From assembly GCA_903865745.1 (NCBI GenBank), contig CAIPKV010000012.1, forward strand, positions 10,953 through 74,952: DNA of 64,000 nucleotides, given 5' to 3'. Made by a program: the position numbers and the translations under genes. This stretch comes from an uncultured Verrucomicrobia subdivision 3 bacterium. Its GTDB lineage: Bacteria > Verrucomicrobiota > Verrucomicrobiia > Limisphaerales > UBA11358. Below, piece by piece: positions 15,236 through 37,245 of the stretch. The notes below the pieces were generated by a model that ran no database searches, was not told the DNA's origin, and saw nothing but the letters and a program-made list of their open reading frames with translations. Position 1 is the first letter of the stretch. Each line of letters starts with the position of its first letter.

Positions 15236-15281
15236 TGGAGCCAGCTGTCAGGATTGAACTGACGACCCGCAGTTTACAAAA
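15236..15281 (-). other. att site: displaced 3' half of tRNA-Thr(TGT)
   Basis: Reverse complement TTTTGTAAACTGCGGGTCGTCAGTTCAATCCTGACAGCTGGCTCCA runs from the anticodon loop to CCA; 5' half absent; integrase adjacent. Confidence 0.88.
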
Positions 15282-15343
15282 TAGAGGGGCGTGTCTCATA
15301 TCAGCCCAATAAACATTGGCTTGTATTGTTGTCAATTTTCTTG

Positions 15344-15372
15344 TTGACCCCCGCCTTGACCCCCATCATAAT
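15344..15372 (+). promoter_or_regulatory. Sigma70-like promoter TTGACC-N17-CATAAT for the integrase, overlapping a TTGACCCCC direct repeat
   Basis: -35 at 15344-49, -10 at 15367-72, predicted +1 about 15379 (the A of ATG); TTGACCCCC at 15344 and 15356. Confidence 0.6.
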
Positions 15373-15378
15373 AAACCC

Positions 15379-16428
15379 ATGAAAACGACGAATTCCGACT
15401 TGTGGGAGCACGTTGAGACCAACCTGATACGGTATAAGCCGACTGGCGGCTACTATGTGAAGGCGAAGGTTCACGGCAAGAAGGTGCGGGAATCACTCAA
15501 CACTGACAAGCTCCCTGACGCACGGCGACAGGTTTCCGCCTGGCTGGCTCGTGTCCGAGGCGGCAGCACCCACGTCCGATCCGGCTTGTTGATGCAGACG
15601 CCGATTGAGGAATGGAAGAACTGGATCAACAACAAGGTGCAGGCACCACGCACGCGCGAATGCCGGCTGGACAACTGGCGAGTTGTCATCGAGCCCACCT
15701 GGCCACACCTGGCGACGACCAAAATTAACTCCGTGACCAGGCATGATGTCGAGAGCTGGCGGGACGGGCTGATTACGAAGCACAAATACTCCGTATCACA
15801 GGCCAACCAATGCCTAGGCACATTGAAACAGATTTTCAGGATAGCGGAGAACAAAGGGATGCTGTTGCATGATTCGCCGGCAGCTAGGGTGAAGCAGCTC
15901 AGGCAGCCGGCAAAGAAGTTGGTATTACCCACCAAAGCCGATTTCGCCAAGCTCCGGGCGGTAGTCTATGGCCGAAGCCCTAGGGGAGGCGAGCTGTTCG
16001 ATTTCCTGAGCCTCAGCGGAGCGCGTATTGACTCCGCAAACCACGTCACCTGGGGAAACGTGGACTGGACGGCGAACAAGCTCCACTTCACCGTGGCTAA
16101 GCGTGGAGGATACAGCATACCGCTATTTGCCCCGCTGAAGGCCTTCCTGTTGAAGATACGGCCACCCAGCCAGAAGGCGGACACCAAGGTCCTGAAGGTG
16201 AAGAGCATTAAGAAAGTTTTAGGCAATAGCTGCCGATGGATGGGAATACACCATCTTAGCCACCACGATTTGAGGCACTGGTTTGCCACACGAGCCATTG
16301 AGCAAGGCGTGGACATCCCCACCCTTAGCCGGTGGATAGGCCACAAAGACGGCGGAGCGCTGGCGCTGAGGGTGTACGGGCACCTACGGGACGAACATAG
16401 CCAGACCGAAGCACTGAAAATAACATGA
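15379..16428 (+). CDS. Tyrosine recombinase/integrase
   Basis: SGARIDS, HHDLRH, WIGH and VYGH catalytic motifs; ATG at 15379. Confidence 0.93.
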   Translation: MKTTNSDLWEHVETNLIRYKPTGGYYVKAKVHGKKVRESLNTDKLPDARRQVSAWLARVRGGSTHVRSGLLMQTPIEEWKNWINNKVQAPRTRECRLDNWRVVIEPTWPHLATTKINSVTRHDVESWRDGLITKHKYSVSQANQCLGTLKQIFRIAENKGMLLHDSPAARVKQLRQPAKKLVLPTKADFAKLRAVVYGRSPRGGELFDFLSLSGARIDSANHVTWGNVDWTANKLHFTVAKRGGYSIPLFAPLKAFLLKIRPPSQKADTKVLKVKSIKKVLGNSCRWMGIHHLSHHDLRHWFATRAIEQGVDIPTLSRWIGHKDGGALALRVYGHLRDEHSQTEALKIT

Positions 16429-16616: not shown

Positions 16617-16638
16617 CCGCACGCGGCTCCTTTTTCGC

Positions 16639-16678
16639 CGAATCGCACACCACATGTGGTAGGAAGGAAGGGAGAGAG
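16639..16678 (+). repeat. Repeat copy A (palindrome ACCACATGTGGT plus purine tract)
   Basis: CGAATCGCACACCACATGTGGTAGGAAGGAAGGGAGAGAG. Confidence 0.9.
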
Positions 16679-16692
16679 AAGGAAAAGGACTT

Positions 16693-17019
16693 TCACAGGT
16701 CGAACGGGTCGAACGGCTTCTTGGTTCTCACGGAATCGATTTGCGCCGCTAGTGTGGAAGCCATGTCTAGCGAAGTTCCCAATAATAGGGCGATGTCGGC
16801 GTTGTTCTCAGGTCGGCATAAAATCAAAGTGAGAATTTCCTGGGCGAGAGCTTCGGCGTCCTGCTGGTCGAATTTGAAGCGCAACACGCGGACGATTTGC
16901 CTGAATTTTACCTCGTTTCGCTCCACCGACTCTTTAAGTTTGCGAACGTGCTCAGCGTGCTCGGTAAAAGCCGCGAAACTGGCAATTTGCAAGAACAGTT
17001 TTAATATATCGGTTTTCAT
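16693..17019 (-). CDS. Hypothetical protein ending FDPFDL
   Basis: 108 aa; ATGA-type coupling to the upstream gene. Confidence 0.7.
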   Translation of the reverse strand: MKTDILKLFLQIASFAAFTEHAEHVRKLKESVERNEVKFRQIVRVLRFKFDQQDAEALAQEILTLILCRPENNADIALLLGTSLDMASTLAAQIDSVRTKKPFDPFDL

Positions 17020-17633
17020 TTTCCTTCGATGGCCAGTGCCTTAATCGCGCCTTCGTTTCCCTTGGCGGCAGCCAAACGCCACAATCTGACCGCCTCGCCG
17101 ATGTCCCGCTCGACACCCTGCCCATTGGCGTAGCAAACACCGAGGTTGTATTGCCCGCCGGCCATTCCATATTTTGCCTGCTCGCGCCACTCTGCGATGG
17201 CATCCTCGATACAACCAGGGCCACTGGTGACCGTCTCTCCTTTCACTTCAACTACCCACGCAAACGGAAGGTTCATCGGCTCGTGGAACGAGTCTTGGAA
17301 CGTAAGGCCAGGCCACTGGCGGCCCAAGTATACAAGCAGACTTTCCGGGGCACCATTGGCTGATTCGAACATATAGACGAGTTCGTTTTCAGTTTCGCTT
17401 TCCAGCCGACAATCTCCAATACGTCGACAGCCCCAATTGGCATAGACCCATTCGAAGTAATCTTCCTCGCCTTCAATCACCTCTTGCGGTATCGGCATCA
17501 GCGAGTCCGGGTTAAAGGCTGAGGGAGGTTCCCCCAGCCCATACGGATGACTGCCAATGGCCCGTTTCTTGAAGTGTTCCAACTCCTCCTTGTTGCCGGT
17601 AATCGTCAACACATTGTAATACCAGTTAGGCAT
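17016..17633 (-). CDS. YubB/DUF1281 ferredoxin-like domain plus Sel1 repeat protein
   Basis: MPNWYYNVLTITG, W..ANWG and FES motifs; GQYNLGVCYANGQGV Sel1 repeat; GGAGG SD. Confidence 0.8.
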   Translation of the reverse strand: MPNWYYNVLTITGNKEELEHFKKRAIGSHPYGLGEPPSAFNPDSLMPIPQEVIEGEEDYFEWVYANWGCRRIGDCRLESETENELVYMFESANGAPESLLVYLGRQWPGLTFQDSFHEPMNLPFAWVVEVKGETVTSGPGCIEDAIAEWREQAKYGMAGGQYNLGVCYANGQGVERDIGEAVRLWRLAAAKGNEGAIKALAIEGK

Positions 17634-17682
17634 AACGGCCTCCGGTTTGTTTCACGCTGATTGCTTTTAACACGTTTTTCAT
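17626..17682 (-). CDS. Putative 18-aa leader peptide MKNVLKAISVKQTGGRYA
   Basis: AGGAG SD upstream; stop overlaps the start of the next gene (ATGCCTAA). Confidence 0.35.
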   Translation of the reverse strand: MKNVLKAISVKQTGGRYA

Positions 17683-18542: not shown

Positions 18543-19484
18543 TCAGGAGATGTCGATTTGAGGTTGCGGTTTGGTTTCCGGCGCGGCCACCACTTGCGAT
18601 TGGACGTGCCCCTGTGCCTCGCGGATGTCCTTGAGAATTTCTTGGACGTCTGCGCTGGTAAATCCCGAATCATTGAATGCTTCTTGCAGCGCTCCGGGCA
18701 ACGCTGCACTTGGGTTTATTATGGTTGTCATGTTTTCTGTTGGGTTTTCTCCCCAGCCCACCGCACCGGCTTGACCGGTGAGCAGACCGAGGAAATTGAT
18801 GAGCGTGGCCAGCCGGATGCGGCGGCCTTGGTACTTGAATGAAATGAGCGACCCGTCTTTGCGCGTGCGGAAGTCCGTGACTTTTCCGGCTTTGACGAGC
18901 TTGGCCCAGCGGTCTTTCCGCAGGTTTCCCTTTTCATCCAGCAGCGCCAGCGCGAGCAGACGGACATCCAGTTTTTTGGCCTTGGGATACATCGTGAACG
19001 CCTTGCCTCTGCCCCTTCCCCGACCGGAAATAAATTGGAGCGTCCAGGCAAACGACTGAAGCTCCTTGAGGAATTTCGGCCGCAAGTCGAGCGTCCGACG
19101 GCCATTGGAGTTGGAGAAAATCAGATGGATGTGCCGGGTGGAGGTGTCGCGATGCACCCAGCCCAGCATGGAGGCGATACCCATCAGCTTTTGAAAATCC
19201 TTCGCCGCCTGCAACAGTCGCCGGTCAATGTCATCGAGCTGTTCGGCCGTGGCGTTACGCGGAGTTTGGACGGATATAACTGCAGTCCGGCAGACGCGCT
19301 TGGCTCTTGGATCATGGTGGTAGGCCAGCAGCAGTTCGGCGAGTTGCCGGGGAGTTCCCCTAGCCACGCCGGCATCCAAACCGTCGTATGTGCGGGACAC
19401 CTTTTTGGTGTTGGCAAAATACTTTATGGCCTCCACCGGACGGGAGGTGGCACGCAGGTTGATGATGGCGTAGGGAGCGTTCAT
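18543..19484 (-). CDS. HUH relaxase (MOBP/VirD2-like)
   Basis: N-terminal AIKY, WVHRDTSTRHIHLIFSN His-triad motif; coupled to MobC. Confidence 0.82.
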   Translation of the reverse strand: MNAPYAIINLRATSRPVEAIKYFANTKKVSRTYDGLDAGVARGTPRQLAELLLAYHHDPRAKRVCRTAVISVQTPRNATAEQLDDIDRRLLQAAKDFQKLMGIASMLGWVHRDTSTRHIHLIFSNSNGRRTLDLRPKFLKELQSFAWTLQFISGRGRGRGKAFTMYPKAKKLDVRLLALALLDEKGNLRKDRWAKLVKAGKVTDFRTRKDGSLISFKYQGRRIRLATLINFLGLLTGQAGAVGWGENPTENMTTIINPSAALPGALQEAFNDSGFTSADVQEILKDIREAQGHVQSQVVAAPETKPQPQIDIS

Positions 19485-19910: not shown

Positions 19911-20554
19911 GACCCTGGTTGCTGGCCGCCGATGCGGCCAGAGCAGCCTCCACCGCCCGCCCGACATTAGGGGCGGAGACGGTGCGTTCGATGACGCGGA
20001 GGCATCCCTTGAGCACATCGGCTTCGATGACCTGTAGGGCGGCCGCAGGAAGCCTGATTGCGCCAATGACAGTGAGTCTGGCGCGGATCAGCGCCGACAG
20101 CGTGGGAGATGATTTATGAGTGGACATCCCTTCGTTGTAATAGAAGGGGGGGTGTCTGTTCCTAAACTATTTTGAAAAATCTTTTGGGGAAGTGTTATAG
20201 ACAGTCGCAGCCCTCGATAGTTGCCCCTTGGGCTTGCGCCCAGGCAAACAAATCGGGTCGGGACGTTGAACAGACTTTTGGGGATCTCGTAAGCGAGCGG
20301 GGTGATGACAACGAAGTCTGACCGAAATGCCGGCAGCACGCCGCGTGTAGCTTGCAGACTGTGAGCCCAAACCTTTTGGTGCAGCTCAGGAACTCCCCCG
20401 TCTGCCAATTGGCCTGACGCCAGGATTGAAACTGTTCATGGGCGTCAGTCTGAAGTCGGTTGCTAAATATCATAAGCATCGTACAGACATTATGAACGGC
20501 AGGGGGTGTCAGTTGCCGCAGAAACTGAGTTGTTAGAGTGCAACGTGCTCTCGA

Positions 20555-20593
20555 CGAATCTCACACCACATGTGGTAGGAAGGAAGGAGAGAG
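20555..20593 (+). repeat. Repeat copy B
   Basis: CGAATCTCACACCACATGTGGTAGGAAGGAAGGAGAGAG; one substitution and one indel versus copy A. Confidence 0.9.
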
Positions 20594-20627: not shown

Positions 20628-21038
20628 TTAGAGGTCGAACGGGTCGAACGGTGCCCCGATATTTCGCGCAGCAAATTCTCGGACTATGACTTCGCGCCGG
20701 TCGGCAGGAATCATGTCCCATTTACTCGGGTCACAATTTTCAGGTAACGCCAAATTGTTTAGGCGGCACCACTCATGCAATTCGACCAAAAACGTTACAA
20801 CCCAAAACAATCCCTGTGGCGATGAACGAATTATTTCACCGGCGACTTTTATCCATTCTGGGTTAATCGCCCATTTGGATGTTTCCTTTTTCCGGCAAAA
20901 AGGCGAGTGACCGGTATGACTATCATCATGGTTAAAGTCCTCTGCGTAGTAATGTTCGCAGAGCTCATCACTCACTTCGGTTTCCGGGTCTAATTTGCGC
21001 GGAAGGGTTCTGAATTGGTCTCGCACAGGTTGATTCAT
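20628..21038 (-). CDS. Hypothetical protein ending FDPFDL (paralogue of 21049-21516)
   Basis: ELCEHY, SKWAIN and WCRLN..L.LP..CDPSKWDM motifs shared with the neighbour. Confidence 0.75.
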   Translation of the reverse strand: MNQPVRDQFRTLPRKLDPETEVSDELCEHYYAEDFNHDDSHTGHSPFCRKKETSKWAINPEWIKVAGEIIRSSPQGLFWVVTFLVELHEWCRLNNLALPENCDPSKWDMIPADRREVIVREFAARNIGAPFDPFDL

Positions 21039-21048
21039 GGCGTGTCCT

Positions 21049-21516
21049 TTATTTATGGCTGGCGACTTCCCAGTCGCTGTTTAGCGCCAGACCTTCCAAT
21101 ATGGCTTCGCGCTGTTCGCCGGACAGCATGTCCCATTTGCTGGGGTCGCAATCGTCAGGCAGCTCAAGCCCGTTCAGGCGGCACCACGCTTTCAGCTCGA
21201 CCAAAAACTTGACGACGCTCTCCACCTCATCTTCTGTGCATTGTTTCCTTTCGTAATCTGTGCCGGCCAGCTTCCGCATGAAGCCTTTTTCCACGCAGAC
21301 TTCCACCAGCCATTCCCGGTTAATCGCCCATTTCGATTTCCCGCTCCTCGCGTTTAACGGCCAGCAGGGAATTTTTTTGTCTGCCCAATCAATCCAGCTT
21401 TCAGCGGCGTAATGTTCGCAGAGTTCGCGCAGCGCTTCAGCCTCCGGTTCAATTATACGGGGACGAGTGGCGGATTGGTTCAGTTTTAGTTTTGTCGTCG
21501 AGGCGGTGTTTTTCAT
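21049..21516 (-). CDS. Hypothetical protein (paralogue of 20628-21038)
   Basis: Same shared motifs. Confidence 0.75.
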   Translation of the reverse strand: MKNTASTTKLKLNQSATRPRIIEPEAEALRELCEHYAAESWIDWADKKIPCWPLNARSGKSKWAINREWLVEVCVEKGFMRKLAGTDYERKQCTEDEVESVVKFLVELKAWCRLNGLELPDDCDPSKWDMLSGEQREAILEGLALNSDWEVASHK

Positions 21517-21518
21517 AC

Positions 21519-21563
21519 TGGCACGCTGGTCGGGAATCGAACCCGACCGAAACCAATCAGCGT
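21519..21563 (-). ncRNA. Candidate tRNA-like minihelix (acceptor stem plus T arm plus CCA; no D or anticodon arm)
   Basis: ACGCTGA-TTGGTTTCGG-TCGGG-TTCGATT-CCCGA-CCAGCGT-G-CCA. Confidence 0.5.
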
Positions 21564-21638
21564 GAAACCACCCACGATAACTATTTTAATCTGGAGATTA
21601 AAACCGCTCTACATCTATTTTGTGAAATCTTTTCCAAG

Positions 21639-24600
21639 TCAGGAAAAGTGCTCGCGCGCCTTGTCGAGAAACACCGGTAGCATCGTCCGCCGTTCGGGAT
21701 TGTTGTCAGGGTGAATGCACTCTTCCAAGGTTTCCCGCACACAGAGCAGAATACATTTCTTTCGGCATCGGCTGACGGCGGTATAGAGCCAGCGCCGGTT
21801 GGTAACGAGCGATTTGGTCATCACCACGATGCCGGTGTCGCACTCCACGCCCTGGGAAGAATGTCCGGTGCGGCACCACGGCCAGTCCACCTCGTCGAGT
21901 GTCAACCAGCCCACATTCTTCGAGCCATCGGCAGCCTTGTATGTGACTTGAATGGTGTCCGAGGCTTGCCCTGTGGTTACAGTGTCATCATAGACCGTCA
22001 CCAAGCTACCCTTTCGTATCTGGTAGGCAGCGGCCTTTGCCCCGACCTCCACCACCGCCAAAACATCACCTTTTTTGAAATCAAAAATCGTGGACTTATT
22101 GTGGCCAGCCGCCGCCCGCGCCATTTGGAGAATGTTCGAGTTCACCTTGAAGATGTCCGTGTGCCGAGGACAAAAGACCATGAAATTGGATTCCGGTGGA
22201 AGTGCGGTCACAAATCCGGCCGCCGCTTGCATGACCAGGAACTCGCTGGTCATATAATGCACCTCCATGCCTTGCCCGATTTTTCCCGGTACTTGGCCGA
22301 GATGGACTTGTTCAAAAAAATCAACAATGCCGCTGGACAGATGGTTGCTGGTTCGCCAATTGTGCGACAGCTGCGTCCCGGTCACTCCGGGTGTGCCGGG
22401 ATTTCTCTGTACCCACCTGACCAGGTCTTCCCCCACCAAACCCGGCCCGACCGGCATGTTTTGACCCGGCCCGACCGTGAGCAGCACGCGCTTGCCGGGA
22501 GCCCAGCTCATCGCCATCTGACCGGCCACGTCGCAATCCACCTGCCCAATCTCATCCCCGGCGAACACGTCGGCGTCCAAGGCGACGAAGCGTTTCTTTT
22601 GCTTGTGGGGCCTGATGTGATAGGTGGAGTGAATCGTTTCCACGGCCACGCGCTTATTGAGCCGTTCTCGCAGTTGCTGGGCACTTAAATGAGTGGCGCT
22701 GCCCACCCTTGTGACCAGCTTTTTATTCCGCGCAGCCTTCAACTCATTGGCGAGCGTTTCCGTCTTGCCGGTGCCGGGCGCACCGCTGATGACCTCGACG
22801 GAACCGCCGCCGGCACCTTGTTCAATGATCCGCCAGGCGAAGCGCAGTTCCCCGCGAACATAGTCGGCCCACCCGACCCAATCGCCTTTTTCGGGCACCC
22901 AGGCATTGCAGGAAAGGACATGCCGGGAGGCCAGCAGCCAATGCAATGACTGCAACAACCCTTCGTTGCCGAAAATCGCGATGAGCAGGTCGTAAAGGTG
23001 GCTGGACGAGTGGTACACGTCCCCATTTTCAGCCAGCCAAACTCTGACAAGTTCCAACAATAAATCACGCGGTAGCACTTCGTCATCAAACGGGTTTTTG
23101 AATTTCTGGGCGGCAGCGTGTTCCCTGTCCAGAGTTGCAAGCAGGTTGGTAAAACGCGGGTCGCCCTTCAAACGCTGTCGGATTTCCTTTTCGGTAATTG
23201 CCGGACGGGCGGGCGGAGTCTGGCTCTCCATTTGCCCGATTGCCAGCAGCGCCTCCATCGGCTTGAGTTTTTTCTTCTGGGGTTTCCGTGGTCTGGCTGC
23301 TGGGGTGTCATCGCAACTCATGGCGTCAATAATGTCGGGTGGCAGTTTGGAATAAATCTCGATGTTCTTTGAGCTGTCGCTGGCATCAGGCGAGTCCTCT
23401 GGTTTTGCAGGCCTGAGAAAGAACCAGACCGGGGCATCCCATTGGCTCTTGCGACCACGTTTTACCACGATGAAACCCATTTCCTTTAGTGCATCCCGGA
23501 CTGAGGTTTCTCCGTACGTCGTATGGGGGAGCACTTGAGAGATATGGAAGGTCATCTGTCCGCACTTCAGCACCGCCTTTTCCACCGCTGCCAGCACGGC
23601 ATCCGTTTCCCGAGCATATTTCTCGTAACAGCGTTCGATGTCCCGTTCCGTCCAGTCCTGCCAGGTCGCATATTTATTATGCGGAGCACCGTTCAACAAA
23701 AGCGCTTCGTTAAACGCCTTCTCGATTTCATCCAGTACCGGCTTGAATTCGGGAAGGGCAAAAACCAATTGTTTCGCCTTCCCCACTTTTACGCCCCGGT
23801 CCCAAAGAGACTTCCAGGACAGCAGGCAATTGATGTAAAGCCGCGTTCGGTCAGCCCTGTATTTGGTCATCGAGAGGTATTTTCCGCCGGAGCTGCGCGG
23901 CCCGATTTCCCGGCCTAGGTCTTTGCAAAATGTATTGAACGCCTTTTGCGGCAGGTCATTGAAGAGCTTTTGCACCCAAGCCAGGGGTTTCCCCAACACC
24001 TTCGCGATTTTTTCCTCTGACACGTTGTAGGCGCGCAACTGTAAAGCAGACACCTGCTCGCTCAACCCAGCCAGGCTGCCGCCCTGTTTACCCTGCTTGC
24101 CTTTGGCCGGCTTAGCTTGTGGCATCACCGAAATGGCGTCCTTGATGGTCTGGATTTCGACGTTGCCCATGAGCTTCTCCGGTCGCCAAAATGCAAAGGA
24201 TTCCAGGAATCGGGAGGGCCGGTTGCAATTCTTTGAAGCTCCTTCATCCAGACTAAGCGGCCCGGCATAGCCATTTGATTTAATTTCATCCCACAGACAG
24301 TACACGACCAGCTTGGCATCTTCCGTATCCACCCAGTCCGCAAAATAAATTCCGGCATGCACCCCGTTGGGCGTCTGGCCCGCCCAGGCGACCTCCGGAA
24401 TTTTTTCCAGCACGTTCAGCAGTTCGGCCTTTTCGCCGGGAGTCGCGCCCCGCCCCTTGACCCATTCGCCCTGGGCATTCTGCTTCTGTATTTCAAAATC
24501 CAATGTAAGGTCATGCCGCTTGCCGGGATTGATAGAACGATGCTTTCCCCGCTTTTGTTTTTCAATTTCAACTGGTTTGTCCGGGTCATCCCGCCGCCGC

Positions 24601-24836
24601 GCCTTGTCCAACAACTCCGGTGAAAAAATCGCGTTGACGTAGTACTCGAACTTGTAACCGCGAATTTTTAGCGCCCGGGAGTAGAGTTGAAAATTCCGCA
24701 ACTTGGTAATCTTATTTTGCGACACGAATACTTCGCCACGGGTGAGCTGCTGAATTTTCTGAATGTGCAGGTGCGAACCACCCAAGACAGGTGCGGTTGG
24801 TGGCGCTGACGGGGCGGATGGCGTGGTGGTGGACAT
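21639..24836 (-). CDS. AEP-type primase fused to a RecD-like SF1 helicase
   Basis: LTLDFE, QTPNGVH and LDEGASKNCNRPSR (AEP-like); SGAPGTGKT, GDEIGQ, TGHSSQGVE and LYTAVSR (RecD-like). Confidence 0.75.
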   Translation of the reverse strand: MSTTTPSAPSAPPTAPVLGGSHLHIQKIQQLTRGEVFVSQNKITKLRNFQLYSRALKIRGYKFEYYVNAIFSPELLDKARRRDDPDKPVEIEKQKRGKHRSINPGKRHDLTLDFEIQKQNAQGEWVKGRGATPGEKAELLNVLEKIPEVAWAGQTPNGVHAGIYFADWVDTEDAKLVVYCLWDEIKSNGYAGPLSLDEGASKNCNRPSRFLESFAFWRPEKLMGNVEIQTIKDAISVMPQAKPAKGKQGKQGGSLAGLSEQVSALQLRAYNVSEEKIAKVLGKPLAWVQKLFNDLPQKAFNTFCKDLGREIGPRSSGGKYLSMTKYRADRTRLYINCLLSWKSLWDRGVKVGKAKQLVFALPEFKPVLDEIEKAFNEALLLNGAPHNKYATWQDWTERDIERCYEKYARETDAVLAAVEKAVLKCGQMTFHISQVLPHTTYGETSVRDALKEMGFIVVKRGRKSQWDAPVWFFLRPAKPEDSPDASDSSKNIEIYSKLPPDIIDAMSCDDTPAARPRKPQKKKLKPMEALLAIGQMESQTPPARPAITEKEIRQRLKGDPRFTNLLATLDREHAAAQKFKNPFDDEVLPRDLLLELVRVWLAENGDVYHSSSHLYDLLIAIFGNEGLLQSLHWLLASRHVLSCNAWVPEKGDWVGWADYVRGELRFAWRIIEQGAGGGSVEVISGAPGTGKTETLANELKAARNKKLVTRVGSATHLSAQQLRERLNKRVAVETIHSTYHIRPHKQKKRFVALDADVFAGDEIGQVDCDVAGQMAMSWAPGKRVLLTVGPGQNMPVGPGLVGEDLVRWVQRNPGTPGVTGTQLSHNWRTSNHLSSGIVDFFEQVHLGQVPGKIGQGMEVHYMTSEFLVMQAAAGFVTALPPESNFMVFCPRHTDIFKVNSNILQMARAAAGHNKSTIFDFKKGDVLAVVEVGAKAAAYQIRKGSLVTVYDDTVTTGQASDTIQVTYKAADGSKNVGWLTLDEVDWPWCRTGHSSQGVECDTGIVVMTKSLVTNRRWLYTAVSRCRKKCILLCVRETLEECIHPDNNPERRTMLPVFLDKAREHFS

Positions 24837-31100: not shown

Positions 31101-34100
31101 ATGCCGAGCCGGGATGTTCAGGACTTTATCGCCCATTGGTCTGCCGCCAGCGCGTCCGAACGGGCCAACTCGCAACCGTTCCTTTTGGAACTGTGCGACC
31201 TGCTCGGTGTCCCCCGACCCGACCCGCATCCAGACAAAGGATATTTTTTCGAGTTTCCAATCGTTGAGCACCATCCCGATGGCACCACCAGCAACGGGCG
31301 TATTGACCTGTATCGCCGCGCGCATTTCGTTCTCGAATCCAAGCAGTTTCAGGAGCAGAAAGCCGAGGCCAGCCAGCTTGAACTCGCCGCCCAAGAAGCG
31401 GGCGTAGTCACTCGCAAAAAATCTTCCCAGCCCGTGCGCGGCACCGGCGCATGGGATGATGCGATGATGAAAGCGCGCGGCCAAGCCGAGCGATACGTCC
31501 GCGCCATTCCAGACGACAATCCCCCATTCATCATCGTCGTGGATGTCGGCCACTCGTTTGAAATCTACGCCGATTTTTCACAGGCCGGCAAAGCCTACCT
31601 GCCGTTTCCTGATCCGCGCACGTTCCGCGTCCGGCTCGCCGACCTTGCCGATGAAAAAATCCGCGAACGACTCCGGCTCATCTGGACTGACCCCGCCGCG
31701 CTCAACCCGGCGAAACGCTCTGCCGATGTCACCCGCGAAGTGTCCGGCCATCTGGCGGAACTTGCCAAATCTTTGGAGCAGGCCGGACACGAACCCGACA
31801 TCGTCGCTCAATTTCTCACGCGCTGTCTGTTTTGCATGTTCGCGGAGGATGTCGAATTGCTTCCCAAGGACAGCTTCACCGATTTGCTGGAATCACTGCC
31901 GGCCAACGGCGAAGGCTTTGAGGATGTCATGCGCCAGTTGTTCCGTGAAATGAACACCGGCACCGGCAAAGGCATCTCGGTTGTCTTACGGAAAAAATTG
32001 CTTCACTTCAACGGCGGGCTATTCGCTGACGATACCGTTTTGCCCATCAACGGACTGCAACTCGGCTTGCTCAAAGAAGCCGCCCGCCAGAATTGGGGCA
32101 ACGTCGAACCAGCCATTTTCGGCACGTTGTTGGAACGCGCCTTGAACCCGAACGAACGCCACCAGCTTGGCGCGCACTACACCCCGCGCGCCTACGTCGA
32201 ACGGCTGGTATTGCCCACCGTCATTGAACCGCTTCGTTCCGAATGGGAAAACGTCCGCGCCGCCGCACTGACCAAAGCCCGTGCGGGCGACCTGAAAAAA
32301 GCCCGCGCCGAGGTGAACGAGTTCCACGAACGCCTTTGCAAAGTCACTGTCCTCGACCCCGCTTGCGGCTCCGGCAATTTCCTTTACGTTGCTTTGCAAC
32401 ACTTGAAAGTCTTGGAGGGTGAAGTATTCGACGTGGCCGCGCAATTCGGCGATACGTTCCGGCTGGAATTGGAACGGCAGACAGTTGACCCGCATCAGTT
32501 CCTGGGCATTGAAATCAATCCGCGTGCGGCTTCCATTGCGGAGCTGGTTTTGTGGATTGGCTATTTGCAATGGCATTTCCGGTTGCACGGCAAACGCACG
32601 CCGCCGGAACCGATTTTGCGCGCGTTCAAAAATATTCAATGCCGTGACGCCGTATTGGAATACGACGGCGAACCGCAACCCGCCCGTGACGATGCCGGCA
32701 AAGATATCACTGTTTGGGACAGGCGCAGCAAAAAAACCGACCTTGTTACTGGCCGCGAAGTGCCGGATGAAACCAAGCGAGTGCCGTTGCTGACCTACAA
32801 AAATCCACGCCAGGCACAATGGCCATCGGCAGATTACATCGTCGGCAATCCGCCATTCATCGGCACGGCGCGGATGCGGGAAGATTTGGGCGATGGCTAT
32901 GCCGAGACACTGCGCGCAACTTATCCCGCCGTGCCGGAATCTGCTGATTTTGTTTTGTATTGGTGGCACAAGGCCGCCGAATCGACCCGCGCCGGCAAGG
33001 TGAATCGCTTTGGCCTCATCACCACCAACAGCTTACGTCAGACTTTTGCCCGGCGCGTGGTGCAGGCGCAACTATCCGCCAAGCCGCCGCTGTCTTTGCT
33101 CTTTGCCATTCCTGACCATCCGTGGGTGGACACGGCGGAAGGTGCGGCGGTGCGGATCGCGATGACTGTCGGCGCGGCGGGCGAACTGCCCGGCGAACTA
33201 CTGGAAGTGACCGGCGAAGAACCGCAGCCCGACGGTTCGGAAATAGTTTCATTCAAATCACATGTTGGAAAAATTTCCGCCGACCTTACCACCGGCGCGG
33301 ATGTAACGACCGCAGTTGAACTCAGGGCGAATGAAAATCTGACAAGTAGAGGCATGATGTTGTTTGGCGATGGGTTCATCGTCACGCCAGAAGAAGCCGA
33401 AAAACTTGGACTCGGAAAAGTTGGTGGCCTCGAAAAAATAATCCACCCGTATCGCAATGGACGCGATTTGGCAGACAAACCGCGCGGCGCATTTGTAATT
33501 GATTTGTTTGGACTGACGCCAAATCAAGTGCGTGACCAATATCCAGGGGTTTATCAACACGTTTTAACTCGCGTAAAACCAGAGCGTGACGCAAACCGTG
33601 ACAAATCAATCAGGGAAAACTGGTGGATTTTCGGACGGCCACGCACTGAAATACGTCCCGCGCTGGTCGGCATTTCGAGATACATTGCGACAGTTGAAAC
33701 ATCCAAACACCGTATATTTCAATTTCTCGAATCTGAAATTTTGCCGGACAACAAACTCGTCGTAATTGCACTTGATGATGGTTTCCATCTTGGCGTTTTA
33801 AGCAGTCGCATTCACGTTGTCTATTCGCTCGCCGCTGGCAGTTGGCTAGGCGTTGGCAACGACCCAGTTTATGCGAAGTCGCGCTGCTTCGATCCTTTTC
33901 CATTTCCGCTTTCCACCGAGGCGGAGCAAAAGTCGATCGGTAAGCTGGCGGAGAAATTGGACGCGCACCGCAAGCGCGTGCAAGCACAGCACGGCCTCAC
34001 TCTCACCGGCATTTACAACGTCCTCGAAAAAATCCGCGCCGGCGAAAAACTCACCGACAAGGAAAAAGTCATCCACGACGCCGGCCTCGTTTCCGTGCTG

Positions 34101-34556
34101 AAGCAGTTGCACGACGACCTCGATGCCGCCGTGTTCGCCGCCTACGGCTGGCCGGCCACGCTGACCGACGCCGAGATTTTGGAACGCCTGGTTGCCTTGA
34201 ACGCCGAGCGCGCCGCCGAGGAAAAGCGCGGCGTAATCCATTGGCTCCGCCCGGACTACCAAACCAAGTTGAATCCGGGTGTCACGCTTCCCGCCGAACT
34301 GCCATTCTCGCTCGACAAAAAATCCAAAAAGGCGAAAGCCACGGCGCAAAAGCCAAAGGGCAAGGAATCATGGCCGAAGAAAATGGCCGAGCGCGTGCAG
34401 GTGGTCGAAGCGGTGTTGCATCGCATCGGCACGGCCACGCCCGCCGAGTTGGCCGTGCAAATCAAACGTGCCAAGCCCGCCGATGTTGCCGAGATTTTGG
34501 AAACGCTCGTCACCATGGGCCGCGCCCGCGAGAAGAACGGAAAATTCAGCCGGTGA
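31101..34556 (+). CDS. MmeI-like type IIL/IIG restriction-modification enzyme (N6-adenine MTase)
   Basis: ERANSQPFL...GRIDLY...VLESK nuclease; VLDPACGSGNFL motif I; GNPPF motif IV; TRD. Confidence 0.9.
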   Translation: MPSRDVQDFIAHWSAASASERANSQPFLLELCDLLGVPRPDPHPDKGYFFEFPIVEHHPDGTTSNGRIDLYRRAHFVLESKQFQEQKAEASQLELAAQEAGVVTRKKSSQPVRGTGAWDDAMMKARGQAERYVRAIPDDNPPFIIVVDVGHSFEIYADFSQAGKAYLPFPDPRTFRVRLADLADEKIRERLRLIWTDPAALNPAKRSADVTREVSGHLAELAKSLEQAGHEPDIVAQFLTRCLFCMFAEDVELLPKDSFTDLLESLPANGEGFEDVMRQLFREMNTGTGKGISVVLRKKLLHFNGGLFADDTVLPINGLQLGLLKEAARQNWGNVEPAIFGTLLERALNPNERHQLGAHYTPRAYVERLVLPTVIEPLRSEWENVRAAALTKARAGDLKKARAEVNEFHERLCKVTVLDPACGSGNFLYVALQHLKVLEGEVFDVAAQFGDTFRLELERQTVDPHQFLGIEINPRAASIAELVLWIGYLQWHFRLHGKRTPPEPILRAFKNIQCRDAVLEYDGEPQPARDDAGKDITVWDRRSKKTDLVTGREVPDETKRVPLLTYKNPRQAQWPSADYIVGNPPFIGTARMREDLGDGYAETLRATYPAVPESADFVLYWWHKAAESTRAGKVNRFGLITTNSLRQTFARRVVQAQLSAKPPLSLLFAIPDHPWVDTAEGAAVRIAMTVGAAGELPGELLEVTGEEPQPDGSEIVSFKSHVGKISADLTTGADVTTAVELRANENLTSRGMMLFGDGFIVTPEEAEKLGLGKVGGLEKIIHPYRNGRDLADKPRGAFVIDLFGLTPNQVRDQYPGVYQHVLTRVKPERDANRDKSIRENWWIFGRPRTEIRPALVGISRYIATVETSKHRIFQFLESEILPDNKLVVIALDDGFHLGVLSSRIHVVYSLAAGSWLGVGNDPVYAKSRCFDPFPFPLSTEAEQKSIGKLAEKLDAHRKRVQAQHGLTLTGIYNVLEKIRAGEKLTDKEKVIHDAGLVSVLKQLHDDLDAAVFAAYGWPATLTDAEILERLVALNAERAAEEKRGVIHWLRPDYQTKLNPGVTLPAELPFSLDKKSKKAKATAQKPKGKESWPKKMAERVQVVEAVLHRIGTATPAELAVQIKRAKPADVAEILETLVTMGRAREKNGKFSR

Positions 34557-34563
34557 AAGCGTC

Positions 34564-35217
34564 ATGGATGTCCATGTCAAAATCCGTTTGCGCCTGAAGC
34601 TGAAAAAGCTGGAAACGCTCCACACAATTCTTCAGTCGTTCGCAAAGCATTCCCCAGGTTGGAAATGTGCACCAAAACAATCAGCTGATTATCAGAAGAT
34701 GCACGGAGCGCCGGCTGGATTCGTGGTTTGTGATTCGGTGCAAAGATTGGCACGAGCGGCAGTCGCGATTGCAAATGTGAACGAGAAGCATCCGCATAGC
34801 TTTGAAGTCACCAACATCGTCCCGCAGGAATGTTCCAGCCTCACGATGTCAGAATACAACGGCATCGGCACTGCATTTGCCAAGTCATTTAAGTTGTTTC
34901 TCAAATCCACGCGGCGCGACGGTGTTGTAAACATGGTTGGCCCAAAAATCAGTTTGGACAAAATCATTACCGCGCCTAAGTGCCGCCGATTTTTTGAAAA
35001 CTGGTTACAGACTCCAACGCCAACCAGCCACCCGTCTGATGTTCACGCGTTGGATAATTTCATCTGCGCCATTTTTCGGCATGGTGCTGATGTTGATTTG
35101 AACCGCCTAGGGCGACATCTGGTTGACGACCGCAAGTGGAAGGCCGATTCCGCCGCATGGGCAATGGAGCGAATCCAAACTGGTCTTGATGTTTTGCGTG
35201 CCAACCAGGGATTTTAA
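34564..35217 (+). CDS. Hypothetical protein
   Basis: 217 aa between the RM gene and the HEPN gene. Confidence 0.7.
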   Translation: MDVHVKIRLRLKLKKLETLHTILQSFAKHSPGWKCAPKQSADYQKMHGAPAGFVVCDSVQRLARAAVAIANVNEKHPHSFEVTNIVPQECSSLTMSEYNGIGTAFAKSFKLFLKSTRRDGVVNMVGPKISLDKIITAPKCRRFFENWLQTPTPTSHPSDVHALDNFICAIFRHGADVDLNRLGRHLVDDRKWKADSAAWAMERIQTGLDVLRANQGF

Positions 35218-35253
35218 TTGTGTCAACCAAATGAATGATTTGAGCAATGTGTT

Positions 35254-37245
35254 ATGATAAATCAAAAAATTGAATATTGGATTGATGTCTGGGCTGAGTT
35301 GATTCGGCACTTCAATAACAACCAATACGGATTAGAGTTAAATAATCCGCACGTTGCATTGGTTGTGCTCATTGACGAGATTGAAAACAATGAATTGCGG
35401 AACAAAGAAACGCGGGCATACCTGCTTACGACCATTGCCCACTTCCATAAGCACGACCCCATCATCAAAAAGTTTTTACCGACGGAATTCAGCTTGATAC
35501 TCCAAAGCTTCAGTAAAAATTCACAATACTATTTGTTACAGGCAGCCAAAGCAGTTATGCCGTTTTTCCGAGAGGGAAAATATTTTATTGAATCGTATAA
35601 TCAGTTGAAGGAAATCCTAGCCGATTCGAACTGGAAAACCGGCGATGAATCGCAGATAGATTCACTTTCCAATTCGTTGATTGTCGAATTATTGTTGAAA
35701 GGTTACAGCCTGAAGACAATTCAGGACATGCCACGCAATATATTTCAAGATGTCACAGAGAAGAGCCATCATTTTCCTACAGTCATTACTTGGGAGGACT
35801 GTGTTGATTTGGGAGAGGAGGGAAGAAATCAATACAAGTTAAAGCGAGAGGCCGAAACCAAAGATTTGGATCTGAACAAACGGCTATCGGCATTTACTAA
35901 TTATTTTACCAGGAAATCTTACGAACACATTTTCATCTTTTCGGTTGAGGGATTGAAAGGCGATGCGGAGATTCAGATTGGCCCCGTTACGTTTTATTCT
36001 CCGCGTTCTCGCTTATTTGTAAGGTTGAGTGGCGAGGCCAAAATGGATGAAATGCTTAAAAAGTTTGAAAAGTTCGGCCGGGAAAATGAAGAGTTTTTTT
36101 CAAACGCAGCTATTCGTTTGTCATGCATTGACCCGGAAACTGGCAAAAATCAGGCGGTGGAAATTGCGGATAAAGCTCTCGACCTGATTCGTAGCCGCTA
36201 CAATATTGAATGTCGGCTAAAGGTTTCAAGAAATCAGTATCTCCACCTCTCCAAAGACGGCGAAATGCGGGGAACTGGAAATTCTGCCGGGGAAAGCCTG
36301 CTCATCAGACTTCATGGATCATTCGAGCTTAAACATCTGGTGGAAGACGAGGAGAACAAAAACGATTTTAATGCAACCAGCAAATATTTATTTACCGCCA
36401 AGGACAAGCAAACAGCATTGGAACAAAAAATTACAGACTGCCTGCATTGGTTAAGAAAGGGTGAAGAGGCTGACAGACCGGAAGACCGGTTGCTTCATTA
36501 TTGGATAGTGATTGAAAAAGTATTTACGTTTCCAAGCACTGCGGCTCCGTTGTTAAAACCCGATGAAAAACTTGAACCCAAGTTGTTTTTGATAAGTGAG
36601 TTGTTATCAGCCGCAGTAGCCTATGGATTTATCTACCAAATCGGTAGAACCTTATATTTGAATCTTTGGCCGCTATTTAGCGACTCGCTGACTGCAGCAA
36701 TTCGCGGTCAAAAATACGTTTTGCCAAAAGAGATTGCAGAAAAATGTGGCTTTGTTCCGGGATTCACCGGCCAGGTCTCATTAAAAGATTTTCGTGAAAG
36801 CCTAGATGAAATCTGCAAGGCCATCGGTCAGCGAATAATTAAGAATCGGATTTTGCATGTAAAAAAGTTTTACGAAGATGGTGATTTTGCAAAGGAAGAA
36901 ATTAAAAGGGCTGTTTCACGGACAAAAGACGATGTGCTTTTGATTTACCGGTATCGCAACAGCATTGTTCACAACGCGCATTATGATGCCAATTTGCTGA
37001 TGCCGTTTGTTGAGAAGGCCGCAAAACTTGCCCAAACCGCAGTAAATATGCTCACACACGAAAGAGCAAAAAATCAGAGCGTCACCGTAGAAGAACTTTT
37101 CATATCGCGGTATTTGGAGGTGCAGAGAATTCTTGAACGGCTCGAAAAAAAATTGCCGATTGATTCTCTTGAGGTGCCGACCTGGAATGTTCCGTCGGCT
37201 CCTATTCAAAGCGCGAGCCAGCAGGCGAAGCCACCAACAAATTGA
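35254..37245 (+). CDS. Large HEPN-domain protein (ApeA-like, putative RNase)
   Basis: LHWLRKG...RLLHYWIVIE helix plus RNSIVH (RxxxxH); lower GC. Confidence 0.65.
   Translation: MINQKIEYWIDVWAELIRHFNNNQYGLELNNPHVALVVLIDEIENNELRNKETRAYLLTTIAHFHKHDPIIKKFLPTEFSLILQSFSKNSQYYLLQAAKAVMPFFREGKYFIESYNQLKEILADSNWKTGDESQIDSLSNSLIVELLLKGYSLKTIQDMPRNIFQDVTEKSHHFPTVITWEDCVDLGEEGRNQYKLKREAETKDLDLNKRLSAFTNYFTRKSYEHIFIFSVEGLKGDAEIQIGPVTFYSPRSRLFVRLSGEAKMDEMLKKFEKFGRENEEFFSNAAIRLSCIDPETGKNQAVEIADKALDLIRSRYNIECRLKVSRNQYLHLSKDGEMRGTGNSAGESLLIRLHGSFELKHLVEDEENKNDFNATSKYLFTAKDKQTALEQKITDCLHWLRKGEEADRPEDRLLHYWIVIEKVFTFPSTAAPLLKPDEKLEPKLFLISELLSAAVAYGFIYQIGRTLYLNLWPLFSDSLTAAIRGQKYVLPKEIAEKCGFVPGFTGQVSLKDFRESLDEICKAIGQRIIKNRILHVKKFYEDGDFAKEEIKRAVSRTKDDVLLIYRYRNSIVHNAHYDANLLMPFVEKAAKLAQTAVNMLTHERAKNQSVTVEELFISRYLEVQRILERLEKKLPIDSLEVPTWNVPSAPIQSASQQAKPPTN

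Follow-up and report, generated by a model that had tools for sequence, protein, structure and literature searches.

The minihelix and the island around it

The 64-kb stretch of DNA studied here (the window) holds an integrative mobilisable element and not a P4-like satellite. Its genes include a tyrosine integrase (15316-16428), a relaxase-like gene (18543-19484), DinB, NADAR and an MmeI-like restriction-modification enzyme. Rfam gave no match to phage or satellite RNAs at the minihelix described below, and a blastn comparison of the minihelix region with the phage GenBank collection gave no match either. The P4-satellite framing of an earlier account, drawn up from the DNA letters only (the sequence-only reading), has thus been given up. 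Further along the window (31101-37245), an MmeI-type restriction-modification enzyme of 1151 aa is followed by a 663-aa protein without Pfam match, and the two probably constitute defence cargo of the island.

The part of the island that concerns us lies on the minus strand. A gene encoding a 1065-aa protein (21639-24836) has its stop codon 74 nt before the minihelix. It had been read as a primase-helicase, and the helicase part of this description stands, as profile searches recognise a RecD2-like SF1B helicase at its C-terminus, over residues ~680-1060 only, but the same searches detected no primase domain. On the other side of the minihelix are a 155-aa open reading frame (ORF; 21049-21516) and, in the same accessory block, a 136-aa ORF with its own AAGGA SD (20628-21038). 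These are tandem paralogues (47% identity), and searches of Pfam, PHROGs and NCBIfam assigned neither of them to a family. A single distant homologue of the 155-aa protein was found, P0002, with homology from about residue 13 onwards. Two 37-nt direct repeats, 95% identical, occupy 16635-16671 and 20551-20587 around the palindrome ACCACATGTGGT. Each of them follows a gene sharing a 20-nt repeat at its 3' end, AGGTCGAACGGGTCGAACGG, which encodes a common C-terminal FDPFDL; P0002 itself ends in FDPFNL.

Between the helicase gene and the 155-aa ORF, a 46-nt minihelix (21564-21519, minus strand) consists of an acceptor stem, a T arm and a GCCA tail and lacks D and anticodon arms. From 21563 to 21519 the minus strand reads ACGCTGATTGGTTTCGGTCGGGTTCGATTCCCGACCAGCGTGCCA, and this is followed by GT and by the ATG at 21516. 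The first nucleotide, C(-1) at 21564, is the same in all copies that we found and can pair with G73 (a CG pair in 8 of 8). Next come the 5' strand of the acceptor stem, A1-A7 (ACGCUGA, 21557-21563), and a 10-nt linker, UUGGUUUCGG (21547-21556), which replaces the D and anticodon arms. The T arm (21530-21546) has the stem UCGGG/CCCGA and the loop UUCGAUU, and its segment GGTTCGATTCC matches the tRNA motif GGTTCRANYCC. The 3' strand of the acceptor stem (positions 66-72, CCAGCGU, 21523-21529) is succeeded by the discriminator G73 and an encoded CCA (21519-21522), and a GU spacer leads to the AUG of the 155-aa ORF (spacer and start codon, 21514-21518). The stems, T loop, linker, discriminator and CCA had been described correctly in the sequence-only reading, as had the position of the ATG, 2 nt past the CCA and without visible SD.

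In the window, the acceptor stem is paired from A1-U72 through G6-C67, with A7 and C66 unpaired, A7 being unpaired in every copy. The T loop is canonical (U54 U55 C56 G57 A58) and closed by a 5-bp T stem. Two extra pairs are possible, C(-1)-G73 and G48-C66, the latter involving the final G of the linker, and would give a helix of 7+6 bp. The isolated 46-mer folds as the minihelix (-20 kcal/mol, z = -3.7), with none of 200 shuffles equally stable. Folding the 176-nt context of the window brings up an alternative long-range pairing (ensemble frequency 0.007), which is not kept in L155, one of the related loci introduced below. At 20 nt from the minihelix, on its upstream side (21584-21603, minus strand), the sequence is almost perfectly palindromic, TTTTAATCT-CC-AGATTAAAA; this palindrome overlaps a TAAAAT -10-like hexamer, is kept with small changes in L155 (TTTTAATCTCCGAGTTAAAA) and could be an operator or a small hairpin. 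A promoter and terminator scan of the window gave nothing at the minihelix.

Several known identities were considered and rejected. The minihelix has the 7-layer acceptor stem, 5-bp T stem, T loop UUCRANN, discriminator and CCA of a tRNA gene, but it forms no cloverleaf, only the 10-nt linker standing between the acceptor and T arms, and ARAGORN reports neither a tRNA nor a tmRNA at 21519-21564. A tRNA-like domain of tmRNA, or a mini-tmRNA, is contradicted by the pair G3-C70 (C3-G70 in variants), which is not the alanine identity pair G3.U70; the host tmRNA is located elsewhere. Rfam returned only sub-threshold matches, the best being mascRNA-menRNA (RF01684), at 19.4 bits against a gathering threshold of 42.5, and its tRNA clan gave just a 14-bit match to tRNA-Sec. 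Nor is the hairpin part of a coding peptide: in the window, the frame running through it (HADWF..GSIP..RAS) has stops upstream and no in-frame start codon, and the compensatory changes among copies would produce radical amino-acid substitutions.

An origin from one particular host tRNA was also rejected. The 25-nt 3' part of the minihelix has no other match with up to three mismatches in the 3.6-Mb host assembly, and none of the 43 host tRNAs compared with it is notably similar. Since no host tRNA matches the 3' end, the minihelix has its own covarying 5' strand and the att site of the island lies elsewhere, the minihelix, which is moreover internal and repeated, is not an att scar, in agreement with what the sequence-only reading had supposed. 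Beside the integrase and ~6 kb from the minihelix, the 3' half of a tRNA-Thr-like sequence (15236-15285, minus strand), which extends from its anticodon loop, UUUGUAA, as far as the CCA, is probably the att remnant of the island. The sole tRNA-Thr(UGU) of the contig is on the opposite strand, ~65 kb from this fragment.

Related copies and selection on the structure

Thirteen copies, representing eight distinct stem sets, were found in related metagenomic elements; this count takes the second ('b') copies of L077 and L107 and the copy of L181 as true members (L numbers denote related metagenomic loci, of which L049, L061 and L144 come from freshwater samples, and G006 a genome of the same genus as the window genome). 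The contig of P0002 (L006) bears a minihelix that is related and differs by compensatory changes. Metagenome contigs scanned for the pattern gave 120 loci, mostly chance matches in GC-rich coding DNA, of which 6 have true copies; the scan added L049, L061, L077 and L107 to the set. A covariance model built from 6 copies disclosed second copies in L061, L077, L107 and L006. Contigs with homologues of the relaxase contributed a very divergent copy (L144/L145) and a variant with a longer linker (L155-157), and homologues of the L144 replication protein led to L181-184, where a degenerate copy lies in syntenic position. When 400 class-level and 163 family-level representative genomes were searched with the covariance model, true copies were confined to the window genome and G006, the latter carrying an L144-type minihelix; the weak matches in those genomes come from genuine tRNA genes for Glu, Gln and Arg, of which they cover the 3' part. 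Pattern scans of IMG/VR yielded no true copy and at most a real phage tRNA, and the scan of the genome collection gave genuine tRNA-Arg genes ending in GGCGTGCCA-GTATG, together with chance matches and nothing else.

All the carriers are Verrucomicrobiota-type elements with a common module of 121-aa, 94-aa, relaxase and 255-aa genes, and many related elements (L143, L146-L154) are without any minihelix. The linker varies from 9 to 25 nt among copies. The tail is GCCA in 10 of 13, with GACA in L107b and UCA in L181. The degenerate copy (L181 5896-5952, also in L182-L184) runs from the 5' strand CACGUCG to GCAGG and CCUGC enclosing CUCAGUC, then A, CGACGUG, UCA, GU and AUG; it has retained the stems and the GUAUG and has lost the canonical T loop and the CCA, and its linker forms an extra 4-bp hairpin. 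Two groups of candidates (L114 and L021/L060/L141) were not minihelices; they are genuine genes for tRNA-Arg within phage arrays that comprise 10 and 15 tRNA genes. These tRNA-Arg genes have an unusual A1-U72 and G73 (ACGCU.../...AGCGU-G-CCA), which is the acceptor end of the minihelix, and this shared end suggests that the minihelix is of tRNA ancestry, with nothing more implied.

For the analysis of selection, the stems of the eight distinct copies were aligned, the variable-length linker having been cut out by hand. Standard pairs make up 97.1% of the stem cells, and double-sided changes are found at 9 of the 13 pairs (19 cells). The alignment scores 0.607 for covariation and its shuffles 0.171, and no shuffle out of 500 reaches any of the five measures; in a control in which the 3' partners were slid by 1-3 columns, pairing falls to 33-48%. 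Compensatory changes affect acceptor pairs 2-71, 3-70, 4-69, 5-68 and 6-67 and T-stem pairs 49-65, 50-64 and 51-63, and 48:66 covaries from GC to CG. Entire acceptor stems have been exchanged in this way (ACGCUG/CAGCGU, ACCACU/AGUGGU, AGCCCG/CGGGCU). Constant among the eight aligned copies are C(-1):G73, A1-U72, G52-C62, G53-C61, the T-loop consensus UUCRANN and GCCA, and 12 layers always separate position 1 from the T loop, as in tRNA. Stem covariation, on which the sequence-only reading had made its proposal depend, is thus strong, and we conclude that this is a genuine tRNA-like acceptor/T-arm minihelix whose structure is under selection. Each of the 13 copies points the same way as the genes beside it, and the two wobble pairs (G.U in L049, U.G in L061b) would be A.C mismatches on the opposite strand. 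What folds is therefore the RNA or, with less plausibility, the sense strand of the DNA.

Start codons beside the minihelix

The tie to a start codon noticed in the window recurs in homologues. An ATG lies 0-2 nt past the 3' tail in 9 of the 13 copies (0 nt in L144, otherwise 2), most copies having GUAUG after the tail, and each of these nine ATGs opens an ORF, of 83-462 aa; the four copies without adjacent ATG are L077a/b and L107a/b. If the ATG were no more than part of a motif preceding a gene, it would be in frame and free of stops with a chance of at most 1/3 in each of the approximately five independent cases. In the window and in L144, the minihelix-adjacent ATG is the only plausible start (for the 155-aa ORF, the sole possible one). 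No SD precedes the ATG at 21516, and GGAGG- or AAGGA-like SD motifs precede most of the neighbouring genes of the element. In most copies the stop of the upstream gene falls between 8 nt inside the 5' strand and 16 nt before the hairpin.

In support of translation from the adjacent ATG, 2 of 3 changes directly after it are synonymous between L144 and G006. Against it, in the MQNT family of ORFs, gene callers choose an internal ATG with a purine-rich (SD) stretch upstream over the minihelix-adjacent one, and none of the ~9 changes in the 23 codons separating the two ATGs is synonymous (L061 compared with L155). The ATG of the degenerate copy in L181 is in frame with a called AAA_25 gene 17 codons downstream. 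In L144 (2737-2751) and in L193, which belongs to G006, a conserved TATAAT precedes C(-1) by 4 nt; the sole -35-like hexamer there, TAGACA, is just 14 nt from it. Were this promoter real, transcription would start at about A1, and an L144-type copy would need no cleavage by RNase P.

Two copies per locus are present in L006, L061, L077 and L107. The minihelix and its downstream ORF move as a unit (L061 1833-2269 and L155 5535-5986, 87%), and the sequence common to L061 and L077 is the 47-nt minihelix alone, 97.9% conserved between unrelated flanks. The window matches L155 until 16 nt past the minihelix, where the first ORF of L155 is missing. The adjacent ATG with about five codons has therefore been fused in frame to a P0002-like gene, a gene with a start of its own in other loci. 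The minihelix is thus a repeated punctuation unit, in several copies per locus in relatives and moving with the ORF that follows it, an aspect absent from the sequence-only reading.

A putative processing signal and its alternatives

The reading that we favour, with somewhat better than even confidence and from sequence evidence, is that the minihelix acts as a bacterial t-element, by which a polycistronic RNA would be cut into near-leaderless mRNAs. It would be a cis-acting RNA on the sense strand of the polycistronic transcript of the element, mimicking the top half of a tRNA and retaining the features that tRNA end-processing enzymes read, namely the 12-layer stack of acceptor and T stems, the canonical T loop, the discriminator and the CCA. 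The type-A RNase P of the host would cut 5' of A1, and the pathway of tRNA 3' maturation would make an endonucleolytic cut at or just after the CCA, 3' of the minihelix. Together the two cuts would part the upstream from the downstream cistron, leaving a downstream mRNA that starts 0-2 nt before its AUG and would be translated as a leaderless or nearly leaderless message; a CCA-ended minihelix RNA of ~45 nt, with or without a function, would be released as a by-product.

Two considerations lead us to this proposal as the best explanation. The first is that a helix of -18 to -21 kcal/mol (by folding) ending 0-2 nt from an AUG without SD is incompatible with ordinary 30S binding; such an ORF, with a stable hairpin abutting its start, would be translatable because the cut mRNA would be leaderless or nearly so. 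The second is that the invariants of the copies are those which tRNA end-processing enzymes read, and the RNase P of the host is normal (canonical type-A RNase P RNA, 223.8 bits). Moreover the minihelix contains the GGTTCGATTCC motif and lies between cistrons, on the sense strand, with an ATG following at 0-2 nt, as befits a t-element. Selection on the structure, the tRNA-specific invariants, which a plain hairpin would not require, the repeated layout with its stops and starts and the joint movement of hairpin and ORF also speak for this reading. A minihelix of acceptor and T arm with CCA suffices as a substrate of RNase P, as McClain, Guerrier-Takada and Altman are said to have shown in 1987. 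Against the t-element reading are the search of the host for RNase Z, which gave nothing above the family cut-off, the C(-1):G73 pair, which is a non-preferred context for RNase P, the copies without ATG (L077a/b, L107a/b), the many relatives free of minihelices, the internal start of the MQNT family and the degenerate L181. The latter, which keeps stems and GUAUG without T loop or CCA, suggests that the juxtaposition of hairpin and AUG may matter more than the mimicry of tRNA.

The excised minihelix of ~45 nt with its CCA end may instead be the product that matters, acting in trans by titrating, or by being used by, a tRNA-binding factor. We regard this as unlikely, and it is compatible with processing as proposed above. 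Its partner might be a toxin or defence nuclease directed at the acceptor stem, the CCA-adding enzyme, EF-Tu or a synthetase. A1-U72, G73 and C(-1) are fixed while the remainder of the acceptor stem is freely replaced, which points to a sequence-specific reader beyond RNase P. The tRNA-Trp is the sole tRNA of the host with A1-U72 and G73; its overall likeness to the minihelix is, however, no better than that of several other host tRNAs (26/35, as against 25/35). The setting, accessory DNA that includes candidate anti-defence genes (NADAR, for example), and the independence of the L077a/L107a and L077b/L107b copies from any start codon would also suit a product acting in trans. On the other hand, no partner protein co-occurs with the minihelix, the CCA has been lost from two copies (L107b and L181), and the tight adjacency to ATG and the moving unit of minihelix and ORF favour a role in cis. 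One might speculate that both roles are combined, the islands running a complete system of tRNA punctuation with leaderless, SD-less genes and also releasing minihelices as functional tRNA decoys or substrates, which possibly titrate a defence or toxin aimed at acceptor ends or become charged; we hold this fuller scheme to be improbable.

A second alternative, to which we give little credence, is a hairpin that stays uncut on an intact mRNA, as an off-switch at the abutting AUG, relieved by a helicase, a terminating ribosome or an antisense partner, or as a protection of mRNA ends against exonucleases. The stability of the helix at 0-2 nt from the AUG is in line with this, and so is the survival of helix and GUAUG, without T loop or CCA, in L181; ribosomes terminating at the upstream stops would be near enough to melt the 5' strand. 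An antisense partner might be seen in CAATCAGCGTGAAAC (17649-17663, minus strand), a perfect 15-nt complement of the 5' flank and 5' strand of the minihelix, located just 5' of the GGAGG SD of a Sel1-repeat gene (17016-17633). The complement is, however, absent from L061, L144 and L155, which have the homologous gene, and is thus specific to one lineage or due to chance; pairing with the SD region of the Sel1 gene was rejected as an explanation. A permanently blocked start would leave the 155-aa and 442-aa genes untranslatable, as they have no alternative start, and an uncut hairpin leaves the conserved T-loop sequence, G73, the CCA and the tRNA-exact 12-layer geometry unexplained.

The minihelix could also be a site of DNA recombination, a pseudo-tRNA or attC-like fold through which elements gain, lose or swap small gene cassettes, and this we find distinctly improbable. 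The 3' halves of tRNA genes are classic targets of integrases, and covariation by itself cannot tell RNA from folded single-stranded DNA. The copies border small, variable ORFs flanked by conserved modules for replication and mobilisation, they form arrays of site and ORF, and the 47-nt element shared by L061 and L077 and the break in homology between the window and L155 just past the minihelix are of the kind that such a site would leave. But there is no common recombinase (tyrosine integrases in the window and L181, a serine recombinase in L144), homology breaks at the borders of the minihelix and not at an internal crossover point, the wobble pairs suit the sense strand alone, and such a site accounts neither for the CCA and the T-loop sequence nor for the constant spacing from the ATG; ordinary homologous recombination between 46-nt repeats could yield the same mosaicism. 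That the minihelix is a functionless relic, a decayed tRNA gene or integration scar, is hardly credible: its acceptor and T arms do resemble the phage-array tRNA-Arg genes with A1-U72 and G73 (L114, L021), but compensatory evolution at 9 of 13 pairs excludes a relic, as do its conservation at 97.9% between unrelated flanks, its own 5' strand, the lack of a host tRNA match, the att fragment elsewhere and the copies not being recent identical duplicates.

If the t-element reading is correct, a mobile element would have borrowed the universal tRNA-processing enzymes to obtain separately stable and separately translated leaderless messages, with no need of a promoter or ribosome-binding site for each gene, and this would explain how accessory genes without SD are expressed in diverse hosts. 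The 46 nt would then be a compact and portable module for processing and translation, a new bacterial expression signal and a potential tool for synthetic biology. Our search of the literature found no account of bacterial mobile elements in which start codons are coupled to such minimal punctuation units made of a tRNA top half.

The known systems resemble it in part. Structured small RNAs are cut from longer transcripts by tRNA-processing enzymes in the cases of P4 CI RNA, phi80 M3 RNA and the mascRNA of MALAT1; in MALAT1, the mascRNA cut also forms the end of the neighbouring RNA, mascRNA being eukaryotic. P4 CI is, however, an antisense immunity RNA and not a minihelix of T arm and CCA, and the present element is not P4-like. 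For integron attC-type sites the picture is mixed: arrays of site and ORF and mosaic borders exist, but the carriers have no common recombinase and homology breaks at the borders and not inside the site. The model substrates of RNase P have the same coaxial acceptor and T stems, T loop and 3' RCCA, and some have C(-1):G73; they comprise those of McClain, Guerrier-Takada and Altman (1987) and the pATSer substrates, which reportedly include C-1/G73 variants. They are laboratory constructs, whereas the minihelix is natural and evolutionarily conserved.

In animal mitochondrial DNA, the punctuation of a polycistronic transcript by tRNAs gives leaderless mRNAs. The likeness lies in tRNA-shaped marks between cistrons and in starts at or beside the processed 5' end, which is here a proposed one, but the mitochondrial marks are functional tRNAs and the minihelix, without D and anticodon arms, cannot decode. 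The t-elements of plant mitochondria, reportedly described by Hanic-Joyce in 1990, are partial tRNA-like structures. They have been found by the motif GGTTCRANYCC and produce mRNA ends, including the rps4 5' end at +2 (PMC1920247, Forner et al. 2007), and those of Haloferax volcanii offer a second precedent (PMC4946936). In both, RNase P and RNase Z recognise the elements as places to cut, so that mRNA 5' or 3' ends lie at their borders. The minihelix, too, is a partial tRNA-like fold with a GGTTCRANYCC T arm, within an mRNA precursor and beside an ORF. It departs from the t-elements in its bacterial host and mobile carrier, in being a bare 46-nt acceptor/T-arm with encoded CCA whose cleavage is proposed here from sequence, and in being a portable, repeated unit with its own ORF and a start codon at a constant distance of 0-2 nt. 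Should the proposed cuts take place, it would be a bacterial counterpart both of mitochondrial tRNA punctuation and of the t-elements of plants and archaea.
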